DNA from: a virus
Length of the DNA: 40,229 nucleotides
Virus record (IMG/VR): IMGVR_UViG_3300028410_000001
Reading direction: 5' to 3' (one strand)
Part shown: positions 7,250 to 40,229 of the stretch, in pieces
Layout: every line of letters starts with the position of its first letter
Position numbering within the stretch: position 1 is the first letter of the stretch
The notes under the pieces: generated by a model
Told to the model about the DNA's origin: nothing
The model's input: the letters and a program-made list of their open reading frames with translations, nothing else
Database searches by the model: none
Position numbers and translations under genes: made by a program

Positions 7250-7356
7250 TTGCGAAGTAGCAGAAAGGAGTAGCCTTATCGCCGAAAAGGTTCATGGATA
7301 GTCTACCTTTATTTCTCATCCTTGTGACGTTTTTAAACCGCCTATTTAATAATCTC

Positions 7357-7364
7357 TATCTTTG
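7357..7364 (+). promoter_or_regulatory. Bacteroidota-type -7 box TAtcTTTG
   Basis: TATCTTTG matches TAnnTTTG; a T-rich stretch lies 22 nt upstream at 7331-7334. Confidence 0.4.
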
Positions 7365-7369
7365 CCCTT

Positions 7370-7527
7370 GCCTGACAGCATTACTATCATACTCTCTTAT
7401 GCCCATTTCTCAACAGATCGACACGTTGGATGCCCCTCCCCGCAAGGATGGGGGCGAACTCGTAAGGGGGAGTATGCTTGTCAGGCTCATCCAACGTGTT
7501 CTTAATTTCCCTTTATTATGCCTGACA
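7370..7527 (+). promoter_or_regulatory. Structured 5-prime leader with interleaved inverted repeats, ahead of ORF 7518
   Basis: Arms are gcctgacagcat (7370-7381), acacgttggatg (7421-7432), atgcttgtcaggc (7464-7476) and catccaacgtgt (7478-7489). gcctgaca recurs at 7520-7527, overlapping the ATG. Confidence 0.5.
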
Positions 7528-7736
7528 ACAACCACACTCCATTACAGACGCTACTTCGTAGCCTCGCCCGCGTTGCCATCGACGAAGATTTCCAGACGGA
7601 AACCCGGCGCATTGCACTTTCCACGCTTCACCGATACCTCTCTGAGGTATTGTTAATTCCCAAGGAATTAAGTGATGACCCTTACCTTGACCGACTCGAT
7701 AAGATTATTGAGGAAAAGAAGCGGGCGGTAAGTTGA
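7518..7736 (+). CDS. Hypothetical small protein
   Basis: 72-aa ORF with a strong terminator just downstream. Confidence 0.45.
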   Translation: MPDNNHTPLQTLLRSLARVAIDEDFQTETRRIALSTLHRYLSEVLLIPKELSDDPYLDRLDKIIEEKKRAVS

Positions 7737-7754
7737 ATTACGATGCCCGAATTA

Positions 7755-7790
7755 AGCCCCGCCACGATCAACCGTGGCGGGGCTTTTCTT
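7755..7790 (+). terminator. Rho-independent terminator
   Basis: 12-bp perfect stem agccccgccacg / cgtggcggggct, 6-nt loop, then ttttctttg. Confidence 0.8.
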
Positions 7791-7799
7791 TGCCCATTA

Positions 7800-7830
7800 A
7801 CGTCCTTCCCTTGCACCTGCGGCCGCGCCC
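7800..7830 (+). promoter_or_regulatory. Late-block repeat motif, copy B: ACGTCCTTCCCTTGCACCTGCGGCCGCGCCC
   Basis: Core at 7812-7829, immediately after the terminator, with 60 nt between it and ATG 7890. Confidence 0.6.
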
Positions 7831-7889
7831 ATATTGTGGTTCATTACGATTCAATTACCTGAACCGTGTAACCCACAATACCCCCATTC

Positions 7890-8348
7890 ATGAATAAGGA
7901 AATTAATAAACTCGGCACCGACAACCTCAAGCGGGTGCTCGCCTTCCTGCTGATGATCAGCTTCGCGATCAAGGAACTCATTGAAAACTTCACCTTCGCC
8001 AAGGCGGTAGAGCTGGGATTCAAGCTCGCTCAAAACCAAGACCTGCTGACCGTCAGCACGGTCGCCCTGGCGGAACTGCGCGACCTTGATGTCTTCGAGA
8101 CAGAAGACGTAATCAAGTTCATCGGCATCAATTTCGACCTGGAAAACGACAGCCTGGAACAGCGCATTGAGGAAGCCCTCGACATCATCCCTGAAGCCTA
8201 CGCCCTTATCCTCGCTAACCTTGCCCTCTACACGAAAGTGAATCGCATTGTCACGAATTGGGGGAAGGTCACTGAGGCCCAGGTGAAAGACCTGCAAGGC
8301 CGCTTCGACGTCGCGACCCGCTTGGCCAGCGGGAAACGGGGCAATTAA
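7890..8348 (+). CDS. Hypothetical tail-module protein
   Basis: 152-aa ORF coupled to the next gene by a TAATG overlap. Confidence 0.55.
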   Translation: MNKEINKLGTDNLKRVLAFLLMISFAIKELIENFTFAKAVELGFKLAQNQDLLTVSTVALAELRDLDVFETEDVIKFIGINFDLENDSLEQRIEEALDIIPEAYALILANLALYTKVNRIVTNWGKVTEAQVKDLQGRFDVATRLASGKRGN

Positions 8349-14375: not shown

Positions 14376-14687
14376 ATGTCTCTAATTATCCCACTGAAGA
14401 CGGGTACCCGCGCGGACATCATCGCGATTGGTGTGGCGGGCACGGCTTGCCCTTCGGCCCTCTACCGCGCGACTGATCAGAAGGCGGTATGGTTCGGCGC
14501 GGAGGATGGAAGCCTGATTGGGCCCTTCATTACAGAGGCAAACGCGGGGCCTCAATTCTATGCCAGCTACGCGAACGATACCGAGGCGGGCAACAACAAC
14601 GTGCCGCTCGGTGGCATATACTTTCTTACCCTCACAAACACCTATGGCGGCATTGAGGGTACTCCGAAAAAACGAACTGAACAATAA
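14376..14687 (+). CDS. Hypothetical small tail-fibre-associated protein
   Basis: 103-aa ORF whose stop overlaps the fibre ATG (TAATGA). Confidence 0.5.
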
Positions 14688-17600
14688 TGAAGCAATTACT
14701 TTCTCTGCTCTTTCTCTGCCTTCTTTGCACCGGCGTCCGCGCCCAAAACGCTGCCCCCCTGAAGGGGACGGGCGTACTGCACTATAAGGACATCCCGACC
14801 CACGTGCCCGATACGCGATCCCCACAGGTGGTCTTCGTCGTCGATTCGCTGAAGTGGTACGTGTACGACGCTGACGCTACCGCCTGGCTCCAGCTTTCTG
14901 GTGGCGGTGGGCAAGGGATTGACGGGAAAAGCCTGCTCAATGGGCAAGGCGCACCGGCCAACAGCCTGGGCAATAATGGCGACTTCTATATTGACACTGA
15001 TGCCGACCGCATCTACGGCCCCAAGGGCGGCGGCGTGTGGGGAAACGGGACACTGATTACTGGCCCGGCCGGCCCGACTGGGCCAGCGGGCGCGGGCGTC
15101 GTGATTGTTGGAACTGTGGCCAACGCTGCCAGCCTGCCGAGCCCCTACAATGGCAACATCGGCGACATGTTCATTACAGAAGATAACGGTGGGGGCTATG
15201 TATATAATGGTAGTACCTACACTTACGTGGGTCCGATACGGGGGCCCCAGGGTGAAACGGGAGAAACAGGATTGACCGGCGGGGTCGGCCAGACGGGAAC
15301 GGCAGGAGCTGCTGCGACCGTTGCGGCGGGTACGACGACGACGGGGGCCGCTGGCACGAATGCCACCGTCACGAACGTGGGGACGCCACAAAACCGAACG
15401 CTTAATTTCGTTATCCCGCGCGGGGATACGGGGGCGACTGGTAGTACGGGTGCGACTGGTAATACAGGGGCGACCGGCCCGGCGGGTGCTGATGGTGCGA
15501 CTGGGAATACGGGGGCGGCTGGTGCTGATGGTGCGACTGGGAATACGGGGGCGACTGGTAATACTGGCCCGACCGGCGCGGCTGGTGCTGCCGCGACAGT
15601 AGCGGCAGGGACGACAACGACGGGTGCAGCGGGCACCAACGCCACCGTCACGAACGCGGGAACGCCACAAAACAGAACGCTTAATTTCGTTATTCCCAGA
15701 GGGGATACAGGGGCGACTGGTAATACAGGGGCGACTGGATCGACCGGCCCGGCGGGTGCTGATGGCCCGGCTGGTGCTGATGGTGCGACTGGGAATACGG
15801 GGGCGACTGGTAATACTGGCCCGACCGGCGCGGCTGGTGCTGCCGCGACAGTATCGGCAGGGACGACAACGACGGGTGCAGCGGGCACCAACGCCACCGT
15901 CACGAACGCGGGGACGCAGCAAAACCGAACGCTTAATTTCGTTATTCCGCGCGGGGATACGGGGGCGACGGGTAGTACGGGGGCGGCTGGTAATACAGGG
16001 GCGACCGGGGCGACCGGCCCGGCTGGTGCTGATGGCGCGGCGGGTGATGATGGCGCGACTGGCAATACTGGACCGACCGGCGCGACTGGTGCTGCGGCAA
16101 CAGTAGCGGCAGGGACGACAACGACGGGGGCCGCTGGCACTAATGCCACCGTCTCAAACGCGGGGACGCCACAAAACCAAACGTTTAATTTCGTTATTCC
16201 GCGTGGGGCGACTGGATTGACTGGCGATACGGGCCCGGCTGGTGACGATAGTACGGACGATCAGACGTTAGCTGAGGTTCTTTCGCAGGGGAACACCATG
16301 AACACAAGCTTGAATACCGATGGAAACTTCATTCAAAACGGCACCGGCCAACACGGGCTGACCATGCTAGGAAACGGCGGGATGCTTTTGCGCGGAAATG
16401 GCGTTAGCAGCATCGATGGGGTTAATTTTATAGATTTCAGATATACCGCAACGCATAAGCTCAATACGATTGGAGCTTTGCGCGGTTCCAGCAATTTTGT
16501 TTTTGCCTACGCTGTTGAGCCAAATCCCCTGGTAAATGAGCAATACATTTCAAGTGCAGATAATATCGCGTGGCCACGAACTTCTTTTGAAACAGGTGAC
16601 GCGCTAATTTGGCGCGGGCTACCCGCAACTGTCGCTGCAATGGGGTCAGTCGTTGCGTTGCCAGAATTATTCAAAGTTGAAACAGACGGACAAGCTTTCT
16701 TTCCTAGTGCGCAAGCGGCAGGAGGTGGAAGCGACGGGGTACTGTATGGTAATTCTGCTGGAAGACTTCAAAAGTATTCTAATGGAGTTCCGCAAAACCT
16801 TATCAACAGAACCAACCTTGACGCTGACCTGCTAGACGGTCAGCATGGGAGCTATTACTATTCGCCTGCTAATTTGCCCGCCACAGACGGCAACGGCATA
16901 TACTCCACCTCCGCAACCATACCAGTCGGCCGCGTTGCCTCAGCAGCCAGCCACACGGGCGGGACGGTCGGCAGGACAAAGCTGCATTTTGCCGAGGCGG
17001 GCGCATCCAGCAGCCGACACACAGGGTTTCAATCCTTTGCGCAGGCGTCCGACACAGGCGTAAAGCTGGATCATCGCGTGAACAACGTGGGCGCAACCCT
17101 TTCGTCAAGCCTTGAGTTGTCCAACCTGGTGGACAAAAGCAGCTTTTCAAATGATACCTGGTATTATAATAATGCAGCTAATACAGTACTTAGGGGATTC
17201 AGATTTGTAGGCGATAAGCCTGCGATACGGGTCGGGTCGGCTAGTTTCATTGATATGCCAGCCGCGTTGCCAACGCACGACAACAGCGCGTGGATAGTGG
17301 ACGCAAATGGATCGGGCGGTAAGTACAAACCAGTCAGCTACCGAGCGGCAAAGGATCGGGAGGTGACCCTCACAAACACAAGTTTTGCGACTGATGCTGA
17401 ATTGCAATTAAATGTGCCAGTAGGTGTTTACGACGTGCGCTGCAAGCTTATTTTTCAGGGCGAAAACACAAACAGCGAACTAATGTACCGCGTCACAGCA
17501 GCAGCAACAACAGGCAGGGTAAACGCCTATACGTCGAAGGGGGAAAGCGTGTTGACGCAAGCCTTTACTGGCAACACGTTTGGGGAACTGTACAGGACTG

Positions 17601-17764
17601 AAAATGCGGCGGGCGTTCACATGATTATTATCGAGGGAACATTACAGGTATTTGGAGCATCAACCCTTGTGGCGGTTCAGCGCGGCGTGCTAGATGCTGA
17701 CGATTCTGTCACCCTTGAGCAGGGTTCGTTTATCGAATTAACCCTTAATACCGTTGGCCTTTAA
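14687..17764 (+). CDS. Collagen-like repeat tail fibre protein
   Basis: 1025 aa with long G-X-Y runs ([37 protein letters not shown]...). Four repeats of [38 protein letters not shown], then a non-repetitive C-terminal domain. The N-terminal boundary is uncertain. Confidence 0.8.
14719..14744 (+). promoter_or_regulatory. Late-block repeat motif, copy E, lying inside the annotated 5-prime end of the fibre ORF
   Basis: CCTTCTTTGCACCGGCGTCCGCGCCC; core at 14726-14743. A 22-nt run ctttgcaccggcgtccgcgccc (14723-14744) is identical to 34761-34782. Confidence 0.55.
15308..16250 (+). repeat. Four tandem repeats of about 250-280 nt within the fibre gene
   Basis: Units start near 15308, 15587, 15839 and 16091; each opens gctgc.gcgac.gt..cggc.gg.acgac.acgacggg. 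Confidence 0.85.
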
Positions 17765-17776
17765 AATCAAAACCCT

Positions 17777-18115
17777 ATGAAGCCTGGATACCTCAATTAT
17801 GGCGAACACCCTCGCGGCGATACCATAGACGCCAAGACATTCACGCTGACCACCACCAGCGCAGGCACAACTGCGCCTATCAACCTGACCGGCGCGGACG
17901 TAAGAATGACGTTCAGCCTTTCAGGTGTAAAAGTCGCTTTCACCACAGGTGGCGGTATTACGCTGACCGATGCCGCAGCGGGTATTTTCAGGAAAGATAA
18001 GTTCTCCTTGCCCCACGTGGGGGTGTGGAGCTTCGACCTTCAGGTTATCCTGAATGGAGATACGAAAACGTACATTGTTGGACAGATTGAAATAATTAAA
18101 GACATAACCGCATGA
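17777..18115 (+). CDS. Small beta-rich fibre/baseplate-associated protein
   Basis: 112-aa ORF between the two fibre genes, overlapping the next gene by 4 nt. Confidence 0.55.
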   Translation: MKPGYLNYGEHPRGDTIDAKTFTLTTTSAGTTAPINLTGADVRMTFSLSGVKVAFTTGGGITLTDAAAGIFRKDKFSLPHVGVWSFDLQVILNGDTKTYIVGQIEIIKDITA

Positions 18116-19893
18116 GTGCTGTAAATGTAACGATACAAGAAACGATCGAGCAGGTCACAGTAGCCGTAACGGAGACGGTCGAAACTGTGACTATTGAGGT
18201 GACGACTGGTGCTGATGGTGCGACTGGTGCGACTGGTGCTGATGGCCCGGCTGGTGCTGATGGTGCTGATGGCCCGGCTGGTGCTGATGGTGCGACTGGT
18301 GCTGATGGCCCGGCTGGTGCTGATGGTGCGGCAGCGACCGTGTCGGTCGGAACCACAACGACAGGCGAAGCGGGAACGGATGCCAGCGTGACCGAAACGG
18401 GGGACGCGCAAAACAAGACGTTCGACTTTCTTATCCCGCGCGGCGCAGCGGGTGCTGCTGGCTCGGCTACAGTATCAATAGGAACAACAACGACTGGAGC
18501 TGCTGGCTCTGCTGCTAGTGTTGTTAATTCAGGGACTGGGACGGAAGCAATACTTAATTTTACATTACCAGCCGGTCAAGAAGGAAGCGTGGGCACAGAA
18601 TTGACAACTCCAGAAGTCCTGCTTAATGACATTCGTAGAGCCGATACCGATAACGCTGCTTATACTAATCTAAGTACTTTTGTTTGGATTCCAGCAACAA
18701 ACAATACCGTCGATGGGTACATTACAAAAATATCAATCGAGGCAAATAACGCTTTGGCAGGAAGGAAGATGAATTTATTCCTTTTCACACGAGATGAGGC
18801 AACTAATAACTTTACTACTCAATATATTGGAACTGACGATTTTCCAGCTGAACTTGACGGGCTTAACGAAGCTACCTTACCCACTAGAATAGCAATTAAG
18901 GAAACACAAATGTTTGGCGTTTCGCTAAGCACAACTGTTGCGTCAAGCGCAGTACGTCTGTATTCTGGAGGCGGTAGTTCGTCAGACGAGGGAGGAACTG
19001 GGCACTTTCAGAATATAACAAGGCTAACCCTATTGGTGCCGACATCAATGTTGTTTCTGTCGAACCGGGGATTCTCCGCGAAGGCTTATGTTGAAGAAGC
19101 AGTAGCTTCTTCGCGCATAAACAATCCTTCAGGGCTAAGCGTGATTGCGGCAGTCGATAGCTTAGTTGGGAGCACAGTTTTTAATGAAAGAGATTGGTTT
19201 TTTGGCAAAAAAATACTTTATGTCGGCACGTCTATTCCCGCTGGGGGCACTACCCAGGAAGGTAGATACCCTGACGTCATGGGGCGCATATTAGGGGCAG
19301 ATGTGGAGAACGTAGCAATAGGAGGCTCAAGAGTGATATTTACTAATTTAGCGAGCGACAATTTCAACGTAAATGCGTTGATGGGGACGATTGCGGAAAA
19401 AGAAGCTTTGTTTTCAGATAACTCAACAGCGGTCATTGCAAACGCGGTAGCTGCTTCGTATGAAACGCTAATAATTGGGAAGACGTATGATTACCTAGTT
19501 ATCGACCATTACGTCAATGATCGCAGTCAAATACGATTTGGTTCCATGGGAACCATATCAGACACAACAGCAGCAACTTTTTATGGAGCGTTCAACGTAC
19601 TGCTAGCATCTGTATATGCCGACAAACCGTCCGCAAAAGTGTTGTTGGTTGCCTGCCCTAACATCTACACAACTGCAAATGCGCAAATAGATCAGGCTGG
19701 ACAAGATGCAATTACAGCCCTCAAGGAAATCGCTTTAAAGTATCATTTGCCGTTTCTGAATCAGGCCGAGGAAGGGTATGTAAACACAAGCAATTTCAGC
19801 GTTTACAATTCAGATGGCACGCACCCAACAGACGACGCAGAAAGAGCAAGGCGGGGCTACGCAGTTGCTCAATTCGTTAAAAGACATCCTTAA
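18112..19893 (+). CDS. Second collagen-like tail fibre with a C-terminal SGNH/GDSL-type esterase-like domain
   Basis: [19 protein letters not shown]... G-X-Y run and a TVSVGTTTTGEAGTDASVT...FLIPRG module. The C-terminus has KKILYVGTSIPAGG (block I-like, Ser) and SDGTHPTD (block V D-x-x-H). Confidence 0.7.
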   Translation: MSAVNVTIQETIEQVTVAVTETVETVTIEVTTGADGATGATGADGPAGADGADGPAGADGATGADGPAGADGAAATVSVGTTTTGEAGTDASVTETGDAQNKTFDFLIPRGAAGAAGSATVSIGTTTTGAAGSAASVVNSGTGTEAILNFTLPAGQEGSVGTELTTPEVLLNDIRRADTDNAAYTNLSTFVWIPATNNTVDGYITKISIEANNALAGRKMNLFLFTRDEATNNFTTQYIGTDDFPAELDGLNEATLPTRIAIKETQMFGVSLSTTVASSAVRLYSGGGSSSDEGGTGHFQNITRLTLLVPTSMLFLSNRGFSAKAYVEEAVASSRINNPSGLSVIAAVDSLVGSTVFNERDWFFGKKILYVGTSIPAGGTTQEGRYPDVMGRILGADVENVAIGGSRVIFTNLASDNFNVNALMGTIAEKEALFSDNSTAVIANAVAASYETLIIGKTYDYLVIDHYVNDRSQIRFGSMGTISDTTAATFYGAFNVLLASVYADKPSAKVLLVACPNIYTTANAQIDQAGQDAITALKEIALKYHLPFLNQAEEGYVNTSNFSVYNSDGTHPTDDAERARRGYAVAQFVKRHP

Positions 19894-32055: not shown

Positions 32056-33108
32056 TTAAAAAGTGGGATAATCCTCCGCTAAAGAGCCCATGTCCTTCCA
32101 TCCAATGCGGCTCAAATAGATGCTGGTAGTCTCTAAATTAGCGTGCCTATTCTGCTTCTGAATGTAGAGCAAACTGACCTTCTTATCTGCTAGTAAATAG
32201 TTGGCGGTGTTCTTCCATCCATACAGCTTGAACTCTAATCCGAAACCCAAGTGATTAAGGTGTTCACGGTACCTCCCGGCCAGGGTGTTGACACCAATTG
32301 GCTTCTTCTTATCTCGTCCGGGGAAAAGGAAATCACCTGGCTGTTTTTGCGAGAGATACTCGGCCAGCTCCTCGCGAAAGGTGACAGGGATGACGACATA
32401 ATCATCCTCTCCATTCTTCGAGATGTGAGAGGGGACATGTACGCGCCATTCGTCGAGCTCGAAGTGCATCACCTTCATCAAGCGTAGTTCTGAGCCTGGC
32501 CGCAGTAGTAGGTAGAAAACACACTGGCAGGCAAAAAGCAATTCGGGGTCGTGCTCTGAAAGGTGTTGATAGATGGCTCGACGATGCGAGGTCTGATACC
32601 TGCGATTGGTGAGTGCCTTGTGCTTGAGGCGAGGGATGTGGCTGAAGAACTCATCGTCGGTGATGGCTGCAAAGATTTGCTTAAGGTATCGAAGGTAATC
32701 ATTACGCGTTCCTCTGGCGACGTGGTCTTCCAGGTGCTCGAAGTAATCAGTCACCAGGTCGGTACTCATCTCTCGTTTTCCTTTCCACTTCAGGAATAGG
32801 CGAAGTTTGGAGCAGTAGCACAGGTAGCTCTTTTTGCGCCACGTTTTTTTCTTCTGCGCGATCCAATCCCAAGCGCGAGCTTCGATAGGCTTCTTCGCCA
32901 CGTAAGTTTCGATGAAGGCCAGCATTGACCGCTCGGCGAGCTTCACCCTGCCTTCGTAGGTTTTGGGGTCGGATAGGCCAGTGTAGATACGCTGCCGCCT
33001 TCCTTCCTCATCGTAGTACTGGAGATAGGGCTTTAGGCCAAGGTTCCGGGAGACATGTATCTTAATACGCGATGGTCCGTTTGGGGCAAGTTTTTTTTCT
33101 GCTGACAT
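32056..33108 (-). CDS. int: Tyrosine recombinase / phage integrase
   Basis: 350 aa. Contains YLLLRPGSELRLMKV (box I Arg) and C-terminal RHANLETTSIYLSRI (His...Tyr catalytic motif). The N-terminal arm-binding-like segment is RIKIHVSRNLGLKPYLQYYDEEGRRQRIYTGL. Confidence 0.85.
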   Translation of the reverse strand: MSAEKKLAPNGPSRIKIHVSRNLGLKPYLQYYDEEGRRQRIYTGLSDPKTYEGRVKLAERSMLAFIETYVAKKPIEARAWDWIAQKKKTWRKKSYLCYCSKLRLFLKWKGKREMSTDLVTDYFEHLEDHVARGTRNDYLRYLKQIFAAITDDEFFSHIPRLKHKALTNRRYQTSHRRAIYQHLSEHDPELLFACQCVFYLLLRPGSELRLMKVMHFELDEWRVHVPSHISKNGEDDYVVIPVTFREELAEYLSQKQPGDFLFPGRDKKKPIGVNTLAGRYREHLNHLGFGLEFKLYGWKNTANYLLADKKVSLLYIQKQNRHANLETTSIYLSRIGWKDMGSLAEDYPTF

Positions 33109-33316: not shown

Positions 33317-33445
33317 AAATAAGGCGACGGCGCATAGGGCCAAAAGTTCTCGATACGGCCAGGTACATACTCATCAACAACTATTTATAGTGAAATAGAA
33401 AAACAATAAACAAAGAACCAAACAACACTCAAATAACCTGATACT

Positions 33446-33628
33446 TTGACCCTAATAGATAGAATCACTTAAAGTATCAAAGTACCAGAGATAGGTAAAT
33501 AGCTGATTCTTAATTACTTACTTACTATATACTAAGGGGGGGGTGGTCAATCCAATTGGGTCAAATAGGGTCAAACACCCCCCCTACTTGGGTCAAACAC
33601 CCCCCATATTAGGGTCAACTAGGGTCAA
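33446..33628. repeat. Second cluster of the same repeat, mostly inverted (GGGTCAA)
   Basis: ttgaccctaata at 33446-33457 is identical to 31893-31904. GGGTCAA begins at 33558, 33568, 33590, 33612 and 33622 (spacings 10, 22, 22, 10), with GGTGGTCAA at 33542. Confidence 0.75.
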
Positions 33629-33698
33629 CATGTTTAAACATGCACCTAGCAGCTAGGGGCAACTTTAAACAATACCACCCCCCACCCCGAGCAAACAC

Positions 33699-34123
33699 TC
33701 ACTTATCGAGGATTTCCAGCAGCTCAGATAATTGGTTCCCCAGTACCCCCCCAGCCTCTTTTGCGGCTGGCGACCGCAACAACGCGACCACCTGTTGACG
33801 CAGCTGCTCCACCTTCGCTTCCTGTTCCTCTACGGTGCCATGTAGGAGCGACTTCTCCCTGACTGATCGCTCCAGCTCCTTCACTACCCCCTCTTCGCTC
33901 GGCGGCCGGGTTTCTCCCTTCCACATGTCTTGCCCTACTATGTCGCCCACGTAGACGCCGAAAAGGTCAGCGTATTCCTGGATAACAGAGGCTGGCGGCG
34001 TTGCTTTCCCCTTCTCGTAATCAATGATGGAACTGGAAGTCTTGCCTAATCTCTCCGCAACGAAAGATTTCGACCATTTTTTTTCTCTCGTAAATGCTTG
34101 AGGTTCTGATGAATACGATTCAT
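33699..34123 (-). CDS. XRE/cI-type HTH repressor with its reading frame interrupted at an A8 tract
   Basis: ATG at 34123 reads MNRIHQNLKHLREKK and then goes out of frame at 34077-34084. The downstream frame reads KKWSKSFVAERLGKTSSSIIDYEKGKATPPASVIQEYADLFGVYVGDIV, a classic XRE HTH, continuous with track ORF 33699-33950. Confidence 0.6.
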
Positions 34124-34158
34124 GTGTAGTTATTATCTGGATTATTATAGTTTTAAAC

Positions 34159-34190
34159 TTGCTTATGTGAGTTCAAACCGACTATGTTTG
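34159..34190 (+). promoter_or_regulatory. Candidate rightward early promoter (TTG-N21-TAtgTTTG)
   Basis: TTG at 34159-34161 and TATGTTTG at 34183-34190, upstream of ssb. Confidence 0.4.
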
Positions 34191-34195
34191 TATTG

Positions 34196-34211
34196 CAATC
34201 GGTTCTGATTG
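34196..34211. promoter_or_regulatory. Operator-like inverted repeat CAATC-N6-GATTG between the divergent promoters
   Basis: caatcggttctgattg lies between the plus and minus -7 boxes. Confidence 0.35.
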
Positions 34212-34214
34212 TCG

Positions 34215-34222
34215 CAAAAATA
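34215..34222 (-). promoter_or_regulatory. Candidate leftward (repressor) -7 box TAttTTTG
   Basis: The plus strand reads caaaaata, which is TATTTTTG on the minus strand, about 90 nt upstream of ATG 34123. Confidence 0.35.
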
Positions 34223-34329
34223 ATAGACAATAGCAATGCAAATGCGATTTAGTCTTTCTTTTCTGCGATTAAAGCGAAGGTCGTCCGTAATCAAAATCGA
34301 TTTCAAACTCAAAACTTAAAGAAATCATA

Positions 34330-34752
34330 ATGTACAATCTCATCACGCTCATCGGCCACCTTGGCCAGGCACCTGAAACAAAAAAGATCTCCATGGGGAG
34401 TTCGGTAACAAGGCTTTCCCTTGCGACCAGCATAAGCTGGAAGAACGCTGAGGGCGTAAAGTCAGAGAAAACAGAGTGGCACAGCATCGTGCTGTGGAAC
34501 AAGCTGGGCCAAGTGGCTCAGGACTACCTGGAAAAGGGTAGCAAAGTCCTAATCGTAGGTCGGGTAGAATACCGGAAGGTTGAGAACAACGGGGAAACTC
34601 GCTATTACACTGATGTAATCGCATCGGAAATGAGGCTACTCAGCACTAAGTCCACCCCTACCAACAGCTCCCCTGAAAATAACCTCCCCAAAGGCCAACC
34701 TAAGTCACTAACCGCCTTGCGGCCAGACGACAAAGAAGACCTGCCTTTCTAA
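34330..34752 (+). CDS. ssb: Single-stranded DNA-binding protein
   Basis: OB-fold signature NLITLIGHLGQAPE...TEWHSIVLWNKLGQVAQDYLEKGSKVLIVGRVEYRKVE..GETRYYTDVIA, followed by a disordered tail ending in the acidic tip DKEDLPF. Confidence 0.9.
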   Translation: MYNLITLIGHLGQAPETKKISMGSSVTRLSLATSISWKNAEGVKSEKTEWHSIVLWNKLGQVAQDYLEKGSKVLIVGRVEYRKVENNGETRYYTDVIASEMRLLSTKSTPTNSSPENNLPKGQPKSLTALRPDDKEDLPF

Positions 34753-34796: not shown

Positions 34797-35123
34797 ATGA
34801 GCAATCTCAGTGATTTCATCTATTCGCGACACAAAGCCCTAGATATTTCTCCTGACGGGACATACGACCTGCTAGGGTCTAAGAAGAGGTTCACCAGAAT
34901 GATGAACACATCCCCTGAAAAGGCCAGCCTACTGGATATAATCCGCCTGGCACAGCGGGTGCAAGTGCACCCGCTGTGCCTAATCAACCGCTACGGAATG
35001 GGCGACCGATCCCTAAGCCAAGAAGACAAAGACCAATTGGGACTGCACTACGCAGTCCTGCCACTTCATCCCACACCAAAACACAATGCTATCCCATTAT
35101 CCCCCCCCGAAAACGTCGGCTGA
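34797..35123 (+). CDS. Hypothetical early protein, possible Cro/antirepressor-like HTH
   Basis: 108-aa ORF; KASLLDIIRLAQRVQVHPLCLINRYG is weakly HTH-like. Confidence 0.45.
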   Translation: MSNLSDFIYSRHKALDISPDGTYDLLGSKKRFTRMMNTSPEKASLLDIIRLAQRVQVHPLCLINRYGMGDRSLSQEDKDQLGLHYAVLPLHPTPKHNAIPLSPPENVG

Positions 35124-36078: not shown

Positions 36079-37578
36079 ATGTCACAAGACCCCTTTCTTC
36101 AGCTAGTCGAAGCAGAAATGGCGCAAGCTATGAGCCTCCTGAACGGAGGGGCTGCTATCCGGGAGCGCATCGCGAAGCTAGACCTGCGCAAGATCGCTTT
36201 CCCGCTTCATTGTCTTCCACTCGGTGTTGCCGAGTTTGTGCGGGCCTACATGGAAACCTTCAATAGCCCAGCAGATCACTATGGCCTGGCAATAATGTGT
36301 GCTGCGGGAGCCGCCGTGGGCAACGCTGCACGAATCAATGACCGGGGAACTATGCACCCGGCGGTGCTCAATGCTGTATTTGTCGACGTGCCCGGCAGCG
36401 GGAAAACGCCCACGATCGGAACGGTATTGAAGCCCTTCGTGAAAATCGAAGGTGAGCACCAGCGCGACTACGACCGCGCAATCCACGAGTATAAGCAGGA
36501 GCAAAAGCAGAAGAAAAAAAACGATGATGAGGGTGACGACGAACCACCCTGCCCTGCGGAACTTCTTGTCGGCGATTTTACCCTTGAGTCGCTTATCGAT
36601 GTGCTAGAGCACAATACCCGTGGGGTGCTCGCGTGGGCTGACGAGATAGAGGGATTTATCTCGGCCATGGATAAGTACCGCACGGGCAAAGGTGGCGACG
36701 ATAAGTTTTGGCTTTCGGCCTACACCGGCGAGCCCTACAAAACAAACCGCAGAAACCGCAGCCGACCGGTCTACATACCCCGGGTTTTCTGCCCTTTTAT
36801 GGGCGGCATCCAGCCGGGCTTAATTACTGTCTTCTCTGACGATAAGCGAGATAGTAGCGGGTTCCTTTCCCGCCTGTTGTTCACGAAACCCGCCTTGGCG
36901 AAAAAGCAGCATTACCACAATCAGCGTCCGCACGACAAGCATGCAGCGCACTGGGAGTACTGCGTTCGCCGGCTTTTGGCCGTTCCACCTCGCGAGACCA
37001 TCAGCGACTTTTCAGGCAAGCAATTAGTGACGCCACACGAGATTGAGATGTCGGACGACGCAAGGCAGATTTACGCCGCTTTCGTCAATGGAATCGCCGA
37101 CCGGATTAATGAGCTCGACGAGCTGGACATCACGACCAGATCTACCCTGGTGAAGTTCGAGACGCACCTGTTGCGCTTCGCCCTAATCCTTCACTACCTC
37201 GACTGGGCCAGCACTCCCCCACCCGCACCGATTGAATCGGACAATGAATTTGCCGATCTCCTGGCAGAAGGATACGTTCGCGAAAGCGACATCAGCAAAC
37301 AAAAGATTACTGGCGATGCCATGAAGCGCGCCACCGAAATAGCCGAATACTTCATGGCTACTGGCCTGGAAGTCGTCGGCAAGCTGAAAGACTACGTGAA
37401 TACACTCCCGCCGACGTACCAGGTGTGGTACGAAGAACTGCCCGAGGAGGGCATAACAACCAAGCTTGCGGTGACGCTCGGAGAAGAAGCGACCTTCAGC
37501 TCCAGCACCGTCAAGCGGATGCTTAAAGACCAAAAGCTTTTCAAGAAAGTAGGCCGTGGAGTCTACGAGAAAATTTAA
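36079..37578 (+). CDS. DUF3987-like replication ATPase (YfjI/primase-associated helicase-like)
   Basis: ATG 36079 (MSQDPFLQLVEAEM...). Walker A is VDVPGSGKTPT. LLVGDFTLESLIDVLEHNTRGVLAWADEIEGFISAMDKYR...KFWLSAYTGEPY is typical of DUF3987 proteins. Confidence 0.65.
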   Translation: MSQDPFLQLVEAEMAQAMSLLNGGAAIRERIAKLDLRKIAFPLHCLPLGVAEFVRAYMETFNSPADHYGLAIMCAAGAAVGNAARINDRGTMHPAVLNAVFVDVPGSGKTPTIGTVLKPFVKIEGEHQRDYDRAIHEYKQEQKQKKKNDDEGDDEPPCPAELLVGDFTLESLIDVLEHNTRGVLAWADEIEGFISAMDKYRTGKGGDDKFWLSAYTGEPYKTNRRNRSRPVYIPRVFCPFMGGIQPGLITVFSDDKRDSSGFLSRLLFTKPALAKKQHYHNQRPHDKHAAHWEYCVRRLLAVPPRETISDFSGKQLVTPHEIEMSDDARQIYAAFVNGIADRINELDELDITTRSTLVKFETHLLRFALILHYLDWASTPPPAPIESDNEFADLLAEGYVRESDISKQKITGDAMKRATEIAEYFMATGLEVVGKLKDYVNTLPPTYQVWYEELPEEGITTKLAVTLGEEATFSSSTVKRMLKDQKLFKKVGRGVYEKI

Positions 37579-40102: not shown

Positions 40103-40229
40103 ACACATCCCAGGACGAATTAGACAATTAAAAAAAGATCAAAATGGATAACAAATGCGGCGTGTGCATGGAGCCTACGCAAAATGAGGGCCTTTGTGCT
40201 CTTTGCCAAATAGCTAAGCGTCGTACATG
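40103..40229. repeat. Terminal direct repeat, copy 2 (circular-assembly overlap; truncates a second copy of ORF 42-287)
   Basis: Exact 127-nt match to 1-127. Confidence 0.95.

Follow-up and report, generated by a model that had tools for sequence, protein, structure and literature searches.

Does the phage presented here still make a working lysogeny repressor? The question is raised by a minus-strand gene (33699–34123) that a sequence-only reading had described as a cI-like repressor gene thrown out of frame by a run of eight adenines. That reading had proposed four explanations: a repressor-defective variant, slipped-strand phase switching, programmed recoding or a homopolymer error. We examined them over the window, that is, the whole stretch of viral DNA analysed (40,229 nt; IMG/VR record IMGVR_UViG_3300028410_000001), and among its relatives in sequence collections. 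Because the window begins and ends with an exact 127-nt direct repeat (1–127 = 40103–40229), it was taken to be a circular assembly with a unit of 40,102 bp. A short-read assembler working at k = 127 typically leaves an overlap of just this length, and the terminal repeat suggests that the window came from such a k-mer assembly.

Nearly all genes of the window lie on the plus strand, the minus strand carrying the repressor gene and the gene of a tyrosine integrase (int, 32056–33108), which is intact and encodes 350 aa. The region between the two (33380–33698) is, from its position and its repeat pattern, a putative attP with integrase arm-type sites. It holds at least six copies of TTGACCC(T)A in two orientations (33445–33459 and 33548–33663), with G/C runs flanking them, and these copies are likely to represent arm-type sites or attP. 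No tRNA gene that would mark the att core was found in the window. On its other side, the repressor gene is separated from the gene for SSB by a divergent intergenic region (34124–34329) with two near-palindromic AAATCG(C)ATTT boxes placed 53 nt apart (34239–34250 and 34292–34303). These boxes, which come without a strong repeat family, would be candidate operators. The SSB gene (34330–34752, plus strand) is the first of the divergent early (replication) operon, the expected target of repressor control, and is followed by three small ORFs and then by a DUF3987 primase-like gene. The order int (minus strand), att-like repeats, repressor gene (minus strand), SSB and DUF3987 genes (plus strand) was the same in all related contigs. 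A Cro/CI-type repressor gene that lies beside int and an att region and faces an early operon is the standard layout of a lysogeny module, and it is this synteny, together with family membership (see below), that points to the protein as the putative master lysogeny repressor. From its gene content, the window would thus belong to an uncultured temperate phage. Nothing in the annotated phage collection matched the immunity region at the DNA level, so the phage has no cultured relative there. In a genome collection, distant homologues of the repressor (30–45% identity) came from Saprospiraceae, Lewinellaceae and Phaeodactylibacter MAGs and from some Firmicutes; the first three, at 35–45% identity, may provide a weak clue to the host.

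Incidentally, other parts of the genome showed features of their own. Just downstream of SSB, a 108-aa ORF (34797–35123) without any family match shared 77.5% DNA and 75% protein identity with a relative that has nine As at the repressor tract (A9), as compared with 95–99% for its neighbours, and is a local hypervariable early gene. Two large genes of the tail region (14687–17764 and 18112–19893) contain 9-nt periodic repeats with 252-nt higher-order units, and strains differ in them by in-frame indels of 9, 18 or 27 nt. Judging from the DNA periodicity, the repeats may be collagen-like, and the pattern suggests rapidly varying fibre or receptor-binding proteins. Finally, a 38-nt motif (AACCAGCGGGCGACCGCACAAA...ATGAAA) is found at 1532–1569, 2379–2416 and 2673–2710, directly upstream of three consecutive genes, and may act as a promoter or translation-initiation element common to them.

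Reading of the repressor gene on the minus strand starts at ATG 34123, gives MNRIHQNLKHLREKK and then enters the A8 homopolymer (34077–34084; T8 on the plus strand). This run occupies codons 14–16 and is 1 nt shorter than the A9 run of the closest relatives. Past it, the 0 frame reads NGRNLSLRRD and meets a TAG, that is, the frame is lost once codon 15 has been read and codon 26 is a stop. The resulting 0-frame ORF (34046–34123, minus strand) encodes 25 aa, MNRIHQNLKHLREKKNGRNLSLRRD, comprising helix 1 of the helix-turn-helix (HTH) only and 10 out-of-frame residues. The remainder of the HTH, WSKSFVAERLGKTSSSIIDYEKGKATPP..., carries on in the −1 frame as far as the stop at 33699. This continuation (33699–34076, minus strand) has 125 codons plus the stop and covers HTH helices 2–5, a linker and an all-helical C-terminal domain. 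No start codon precedes GTG 33950 in that frame. From this GTG, an ORF of 83 aa is left (33699–33950, minus strand), or one of 75 aa if ATG 33926 is the start; of the protein it retains no more than the last part of helix 5, the linker and the helical C-terminal domain, and the 75-aa form is what gene callers give on 12 contigs. The tract lies in the context GAG AAA AAA AAT, and one added A yields an uninterrupted protein of 141 aa. The early stop in the ATG 34123 frame and the lack of a start before GTG 33950 in the nine-A frame had both been noticed from the sequence, and the ORF check bore them out. The same reading had anticipated that one extra A would give an intact protein of about 142 aa, and it was right about the protein and one residue off for its length.

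We next considered what the repaired 141-aa protein would be. It matched Pfam HTH_3 with E = 3.8e-11 and 43.3 bits (cut-off, 23 bits) over residues 8–59, corresponding to profile positions 1–52 of 55. Since the tract corresponds to codons 14–16, the frame break falls inside the HTH domain. The repaired protein also matched PHROG transcriptional repressor and regulator families, and its PDB profile matches included 434 repressor, P2 C and ImmR. An AlphaFold model predicted helices at residues 3–15, 19–26, 30–37, 45–55 and 59–63, a linker (64–76) and a helical C-terminal domain (77–140), with a mean pLDDT of 91–92 in 10-residue blocks across residues 11–40. According to this model, the A8 tract would sit inside the DNA-binding domain, at the end of helix 1. 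Foldseek placed the predicted five-helix domain on SinR, CylR2 and P22 C2 with a TM score of ~0.8 and an rmsd of ~1.3 Å, and the predicted HTH also superimposed on DdrO. The protein resembles Cro/CI-type XRE repressors that combine an N-terminal HTH with a helical C-terminal oligomerisation domain, such as SinR, DdrO and TP901-1 CI, as well as the DNA-binding domains of 434 and P22 C2; its own C-terminal tail is predicted to be helical, and an S24 peptidase domain is absent. It differs from them in that its identity to any solved protein is only 13–34% and in that its C-terminal domain has no detectable relative. We concluded that an ordinary repressor of the Cro/CI-type XRE (HTH_3) family is present here as a disrupted allele. 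There seems to be nothing special about the A run: a GAG (Glu) codon is followed by three AAA lysine codons at the basic end of helix 1, and such a basic end is typical of XRE proteins.

Comparison with relatives gave the direction of the change. The nearest ones, ~97% identical in DNA, had A9 and an unbroken 141-aa gene in 16 loci (L001, L004, L005, L006, L050, L051 and L057–L066), for which the sources were JGI samples (eight or more), several assemblies from ENA and one from Logan. These A9 loci span mosaic backgrounds, including SSB alleles at 76% identity and int alleles at 70%. An identical A9 repressor allele was found beside the divergent SSB (76%) in L005, L050, L051 and L065, and in L065 also beside a different integrase (70%), a distribution that shows module shuffling around the immunity gene. 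A sister immunity type, represented by nine loci (L002 and L067–L074), has an in-frame A7 and reads R-E-E-K-N at the tract. When these nine loci were compared with the window (33950–34330), the first ~55 repressor codons and the promoter-proximal DNA were diverged and the C-terminal half was nearly identical, indicating a recombination breakpoint inside the repressor gene. Runs of A9 or A8 occurred in a single clade; elsewhere the tract was A7, A6, A5 or missing, with use of AAG, AGA or CGC codons. The sequence-only reading would have been contradicted by homologous repressors that initiate downstream of the tract. Six out of six homologous proteins start upstream of it, by 7–16 residues, and share a conserved M..RI..N.K.LRE helix. 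Because all relatives read through in one frame, the ancestral repressor gene was in frame and the A8 of the window is a derived 1-nt deletion.

Little in the gene indicated how old this deletion might be. The changes found in the repressor gene of the window only are D78E, R110Q and one synonymous substitution, too few to date the lesion or to judge pseudogene-like drift; as an illustration, a binomial calculation under neutrality gave P ~0.11 for two or fewer replacements in an assumed five changes. When compared with the A9 strain, the repaired repressor gene and int both had a dN/dS of 0.08, with no visible decay, and the 125 codons downstream of the tract contained no stop or sign of decay. 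Such an open downstream frame, together with an intact int, implies that the lesion is either recent or partly compensated.

A homopolymer is an error-prone sequence, and the true tract might have been A9, the A8 arising from sequencing or assembly. The allele was not peculiar to one dataset, however. The 75-aa leftover ORF was present on the 12 contigs mentioned above, which come from JGI, ENA and Logan assemblies and 10 of which measure 20–50 kb. Three of these contigs were read, namely L052 (JGI 3300011186, a 40,225-nt contig), L053 (JGI 3300012145) and L054 (an ENA k141 assembly); all had A8 and were 100% identical to the window. Apart from the window, A8 was thus recovered independently from two or more JGI samples and one ENA assembly. 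Another contig with the same leftover ORF is 40,243 nt long, which equals 40,102 + 141, and the simplest view is that an assembler at k = 141 closed the same genome. These counts refer to a protein index; the A8 clone was absent from the viral collection and from the metagenome scan, and when tract lengths in the viral collection were surveyed by DNA pattern, a single A9 contig was all that emerged. A8 contigs share the 40 nt before and the 20 nt after the tract with most A9 contigs, one downstream SNP setting two of the A9 loci apart, and the same flanks yielded A9 in the 16 other loci. Moreover, tract length followed the linked strain SNPs without exception, a pattern that a systematic homopolymer miscall would not produce.

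The remainder of the genome was in keeping with this. Over ~36 kb aligned to a complete A9 relative, we counted ~1,500 substitutions and 21 indels, 10 of which were multiples of 3. The other 11 were not, and all of them were in non-coding DNA with the exception of A8, the only frame-breaking indel in a real gene. Two of these indels, near ORFs at ~3060 and ~7444, had looked like further broken genes, and both turned out to lie in non-coding DNA. The second location belongs to a stretch of ~640 nt (7250–7890) that appears non-coding, with a GC-rich hairpin at ~7432–7455; its ORF at 7294–7656 is not conserved as a protein, as a 2-nt indel splits it in the relative and the second segment has 59% aa identity. 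The sequence-only reading had also noted that the A8 runs in int (33091–33098) and in the DUF3987 gene (36514–36521) are in frame; as a matter of record, both genes are intact and their lengths match those of the relatives. A C9 run of the window is preserved and common to the relatives. The only other difference in homopolymer length is an intergenic G8 (33536–33543) that is G9 in all relatives, and this second nine-to-eight difference is the one observation, besides the nature of the tract, that would favour an error. Set against the recurrence of A8 in other samples and with another assembler, it leaves an artefact extremely improbable, and the homopolymer error considered at the outset is effectively excluded. 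The A8 deletion is real, fixed in the clone and the sole frame-breaking lesion in the genome.

Could the out-of-frame arrangement nevertheless be functional? One way would be programmed recoding, with a −1 ribosomal frameshift or transcriptional slippage setting the ratio of the 25-aa peptide to the full-length repressor. A slippery register is indeed present, since the A8 run contains the heptamer A-AAA-AAT, slippage into the −1 frame restores ...KKKWSK..., and the 0-frame stop follows 10 codons downstream. Yet the arrangement is confined to the window clone: all 25 related loci (16 with A9 and nine with A7) and the six homologous proteins have the gene in a single frame, and the long A run is limited to one clade. 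Furthermore, no stimulatory RNA structure was detected in the 106 nt from the tract onward, which fold no better than shuffled sequences (minimum free energy, −21.1 vs a shuffle mean of −23.7 kcal/mol; z = +0.77). Recoding, as suggested from the sequence, therefore finds no echo in the homologues or in the downstream RNA, and we give it next to no chance. A rescue that is not programmed is a different matter. The A8 allele might yield a small, biologically meaningful amount of full-length repressor, the phage then being still temperate and lysogenising more rarely, since either an insertion by RNA polymerase or a −1 slip on A-AAA-AAT would recreate the exact wild-type ...REKKKWSK.... Rescue by insertion with E. 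coli RNA polymerase is detectable from eight As up and amounts to ~5–10% on T7/T8 runs (PMC6260861), runs of nine As or Ts slip efficiently (PMC5009743), and ribosomes slip on iterated AAA codons (PMC4363877). The fully open downstream frame and the intact int fit with such a leak, as does the promoter region. There, a sigma-70-like match (CTCACA-16-TATAAT, 10/12; 34144–34171, minus strand) is located ~20 nt upstream of ATG 34123, and its −10-like box (34144–34149, minus strand) reads TATAAT in the window clone vs TACAAT in the A9 relatives. This change to consensus could raise transcription and compensate for the frameshift, or be a coincidence; the match is one to the consensus only, and the host is probably a member of the Bacteroidota, with a different promoter type. 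On the other hand, eight As are the very threshold of detection for a bacterial polymerase, according to E. coli data that may not hold for the polymerase of the host, the tract lacks a stimulatory structure downstream, and the open frame may merely reflect a recent mutation. A leak by polymerase or ribosome slippage, of at most a few percent, is possible; that it would keep the phage temperate seems to us doubtful, while deserving some weight.

Another way would be reversible phase variation, the tract acting as a contingency switch between a temperate (A9) and a lytic (A8) state. A regulatory gene that has, at its 5′ end, a coding homopolymer of 8–9 nt whose length decides between ON and OFF shows the classic anatomy of a slipped-strand switch and of homopolymer contingency loci in general, and both lengths exist naturally, the phages that carry them being close relatives sampled in one series. 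The alleles, however, were tied to strain background. Every A8 belonged to the clone identical to the window, and every A9 to strains diverged by ~2% in the repressor gene and by 3–5% genome-wide. The exact A9 protein of the window background (with SEEG and LRQQ) was not found in a collection of 15 billion proteins, and neither was an A6 version. Thus, as opposed to known contingency loci, ON and OFF forms did not coexist in one background, and the long run is not kept in the wider family. Two 75-aa variants in an A9/A7 background, P0013 and P0015, had resembled independent OFF alleles produced by separate frameshifts, but they are contig-end truncations, as the genes start at nt 7 and nt 20, respectively, of 2-kb contigs. 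Phase switching, as put forward from the sequence, is therefore unsupported at the consensus level. Switching at low frequency, through minor alleles within a sample, is possible; a genuine contingency switch is very unlikely.

This left the simplest reading, which we hold to be probable: a 1-nt deletion at a mutational hot spot, fixed in the clone, has produced a natural variant of the clear-plaque kind, either repressor-null or strongly hypomorphic. The hot spot would be the A9 run, a slippage-prone series of AAA lysine codons. Loss of one A from this coding run (Lys codons 14–16, end of HTH helix 1) ends translation from ATG 34123 after 25 residues, and HTH helices 2–5 and the helical C-terminal domain are not made from the normal start. 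The clone would then either lack the repressor or produce it at a few percent of the usual level. With so little of it, the clone presumably could not stably establish or maintain lysogeny and would propagate mainly lytically. The word null may really have to be read as hypomorph, because low-frequency correction of A8 would remake the exact wild-type protein.

The phenotype expected is that of known laboratory mutants. In the lactococcal phage TP901-1, frameshift mutations early in cI, ahead of the HTH or inside it, result in clear plaques and abolish lysogenisation (PMC4892519). The window clone is like these and like lambda cI mutants, with a frameshift early in the repressor gene, in or just before the HTH, and with int and the rest of the genome intact, and by analogy an inability to lysogenise would be expected. 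It is unlike them in being natural, recovered in many environmental assemblies and known from its sequence, and in carrying its lesion in an A9 hot spot, so that the defect may be leaky and revertible. A second parallel is provided by Buchnera and Blochmannia genes, Citrobacter tssM and reporters, in which poly(A)/poly(T) indels are rescued by non-programmed transcriptional slippage (PMC5009743, PMC4256274, PMC6260861). Here as there, a 1-nt frameshift lies in a coding A/T homopolymer and stuttering at the RNA level could restore the ancestral protein; the well-documented tracts, however, are of nine or more, whereas that of the window has eight, the number from which rescue by a bacterial polymerase is just detectable.

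A repressor-defective variant was also the option that the sequence-only reading had linked to the recovery of a free circular genome. The option is the best supported of the four, and the argument attached to it did not stand: A9 and A7 strains with intact repressors were likewise recovered as phage-form contigs, of ~38–39 kb, so a free circular genome does not discriminate. A search for prophage–host junctions in the contigs with P0007 and P0002 showed all of them to be phage-form, with no junction in any strain, and the genome collection contained no integrated copy, the homologues found there being the distant ones described above. A point against our reading is the distribution of the clone. 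It recurs in at least 12 assemblies, so that the lineage is a successful one rather than a transient mutant, and about ten datasets contained its complete assembled genome together with intact sister strains.

Two more adventurous ideas would assign a role to the broken locus itself, and we see only a slim chance for them. In one, A8 would serve as a lysogeny dial through A8/A9 reversion in DNA and slippage at the RNA level. If true, it would confer a low, heritable and revertible lysogenisation frequency and would explain why a broken clone persists beside intact siblings. In the other, the leftover ORF would poison the repressor of A9 prophages. SinI acts on SinR, and this provides a model for a leftover helical domain binding a repressor. 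If the leftover C-terminal domain (33699–33950) were translated and acted as such a poison, the clone would overcome the superinfection immunity of resident A9 prophages.

Returning to the repressor-null or strongly hypomorphic variant, the kind of event is well known from laboratory clear-plaque mutants and involves no new mechanism; the mildly noteworthy point is ecological. A caution for annotation comes with it, as pipelines annotate a 75-aa hypothetical protein at the locus and, on account of the integrase, would still count the phage among the temperate ones. The locus may conversely provide a natural marker for shifts from temperate to lytic lifestyles in metagenomes. If our reading is true, the clone would be a field example of a temperate lineage losing its repressor by a single slip in a homopolymer of lysine codons, and this repressor-less lineage would have persisted, dominant and clonally stable in many samples, beside its lysogeny-competent relatives.
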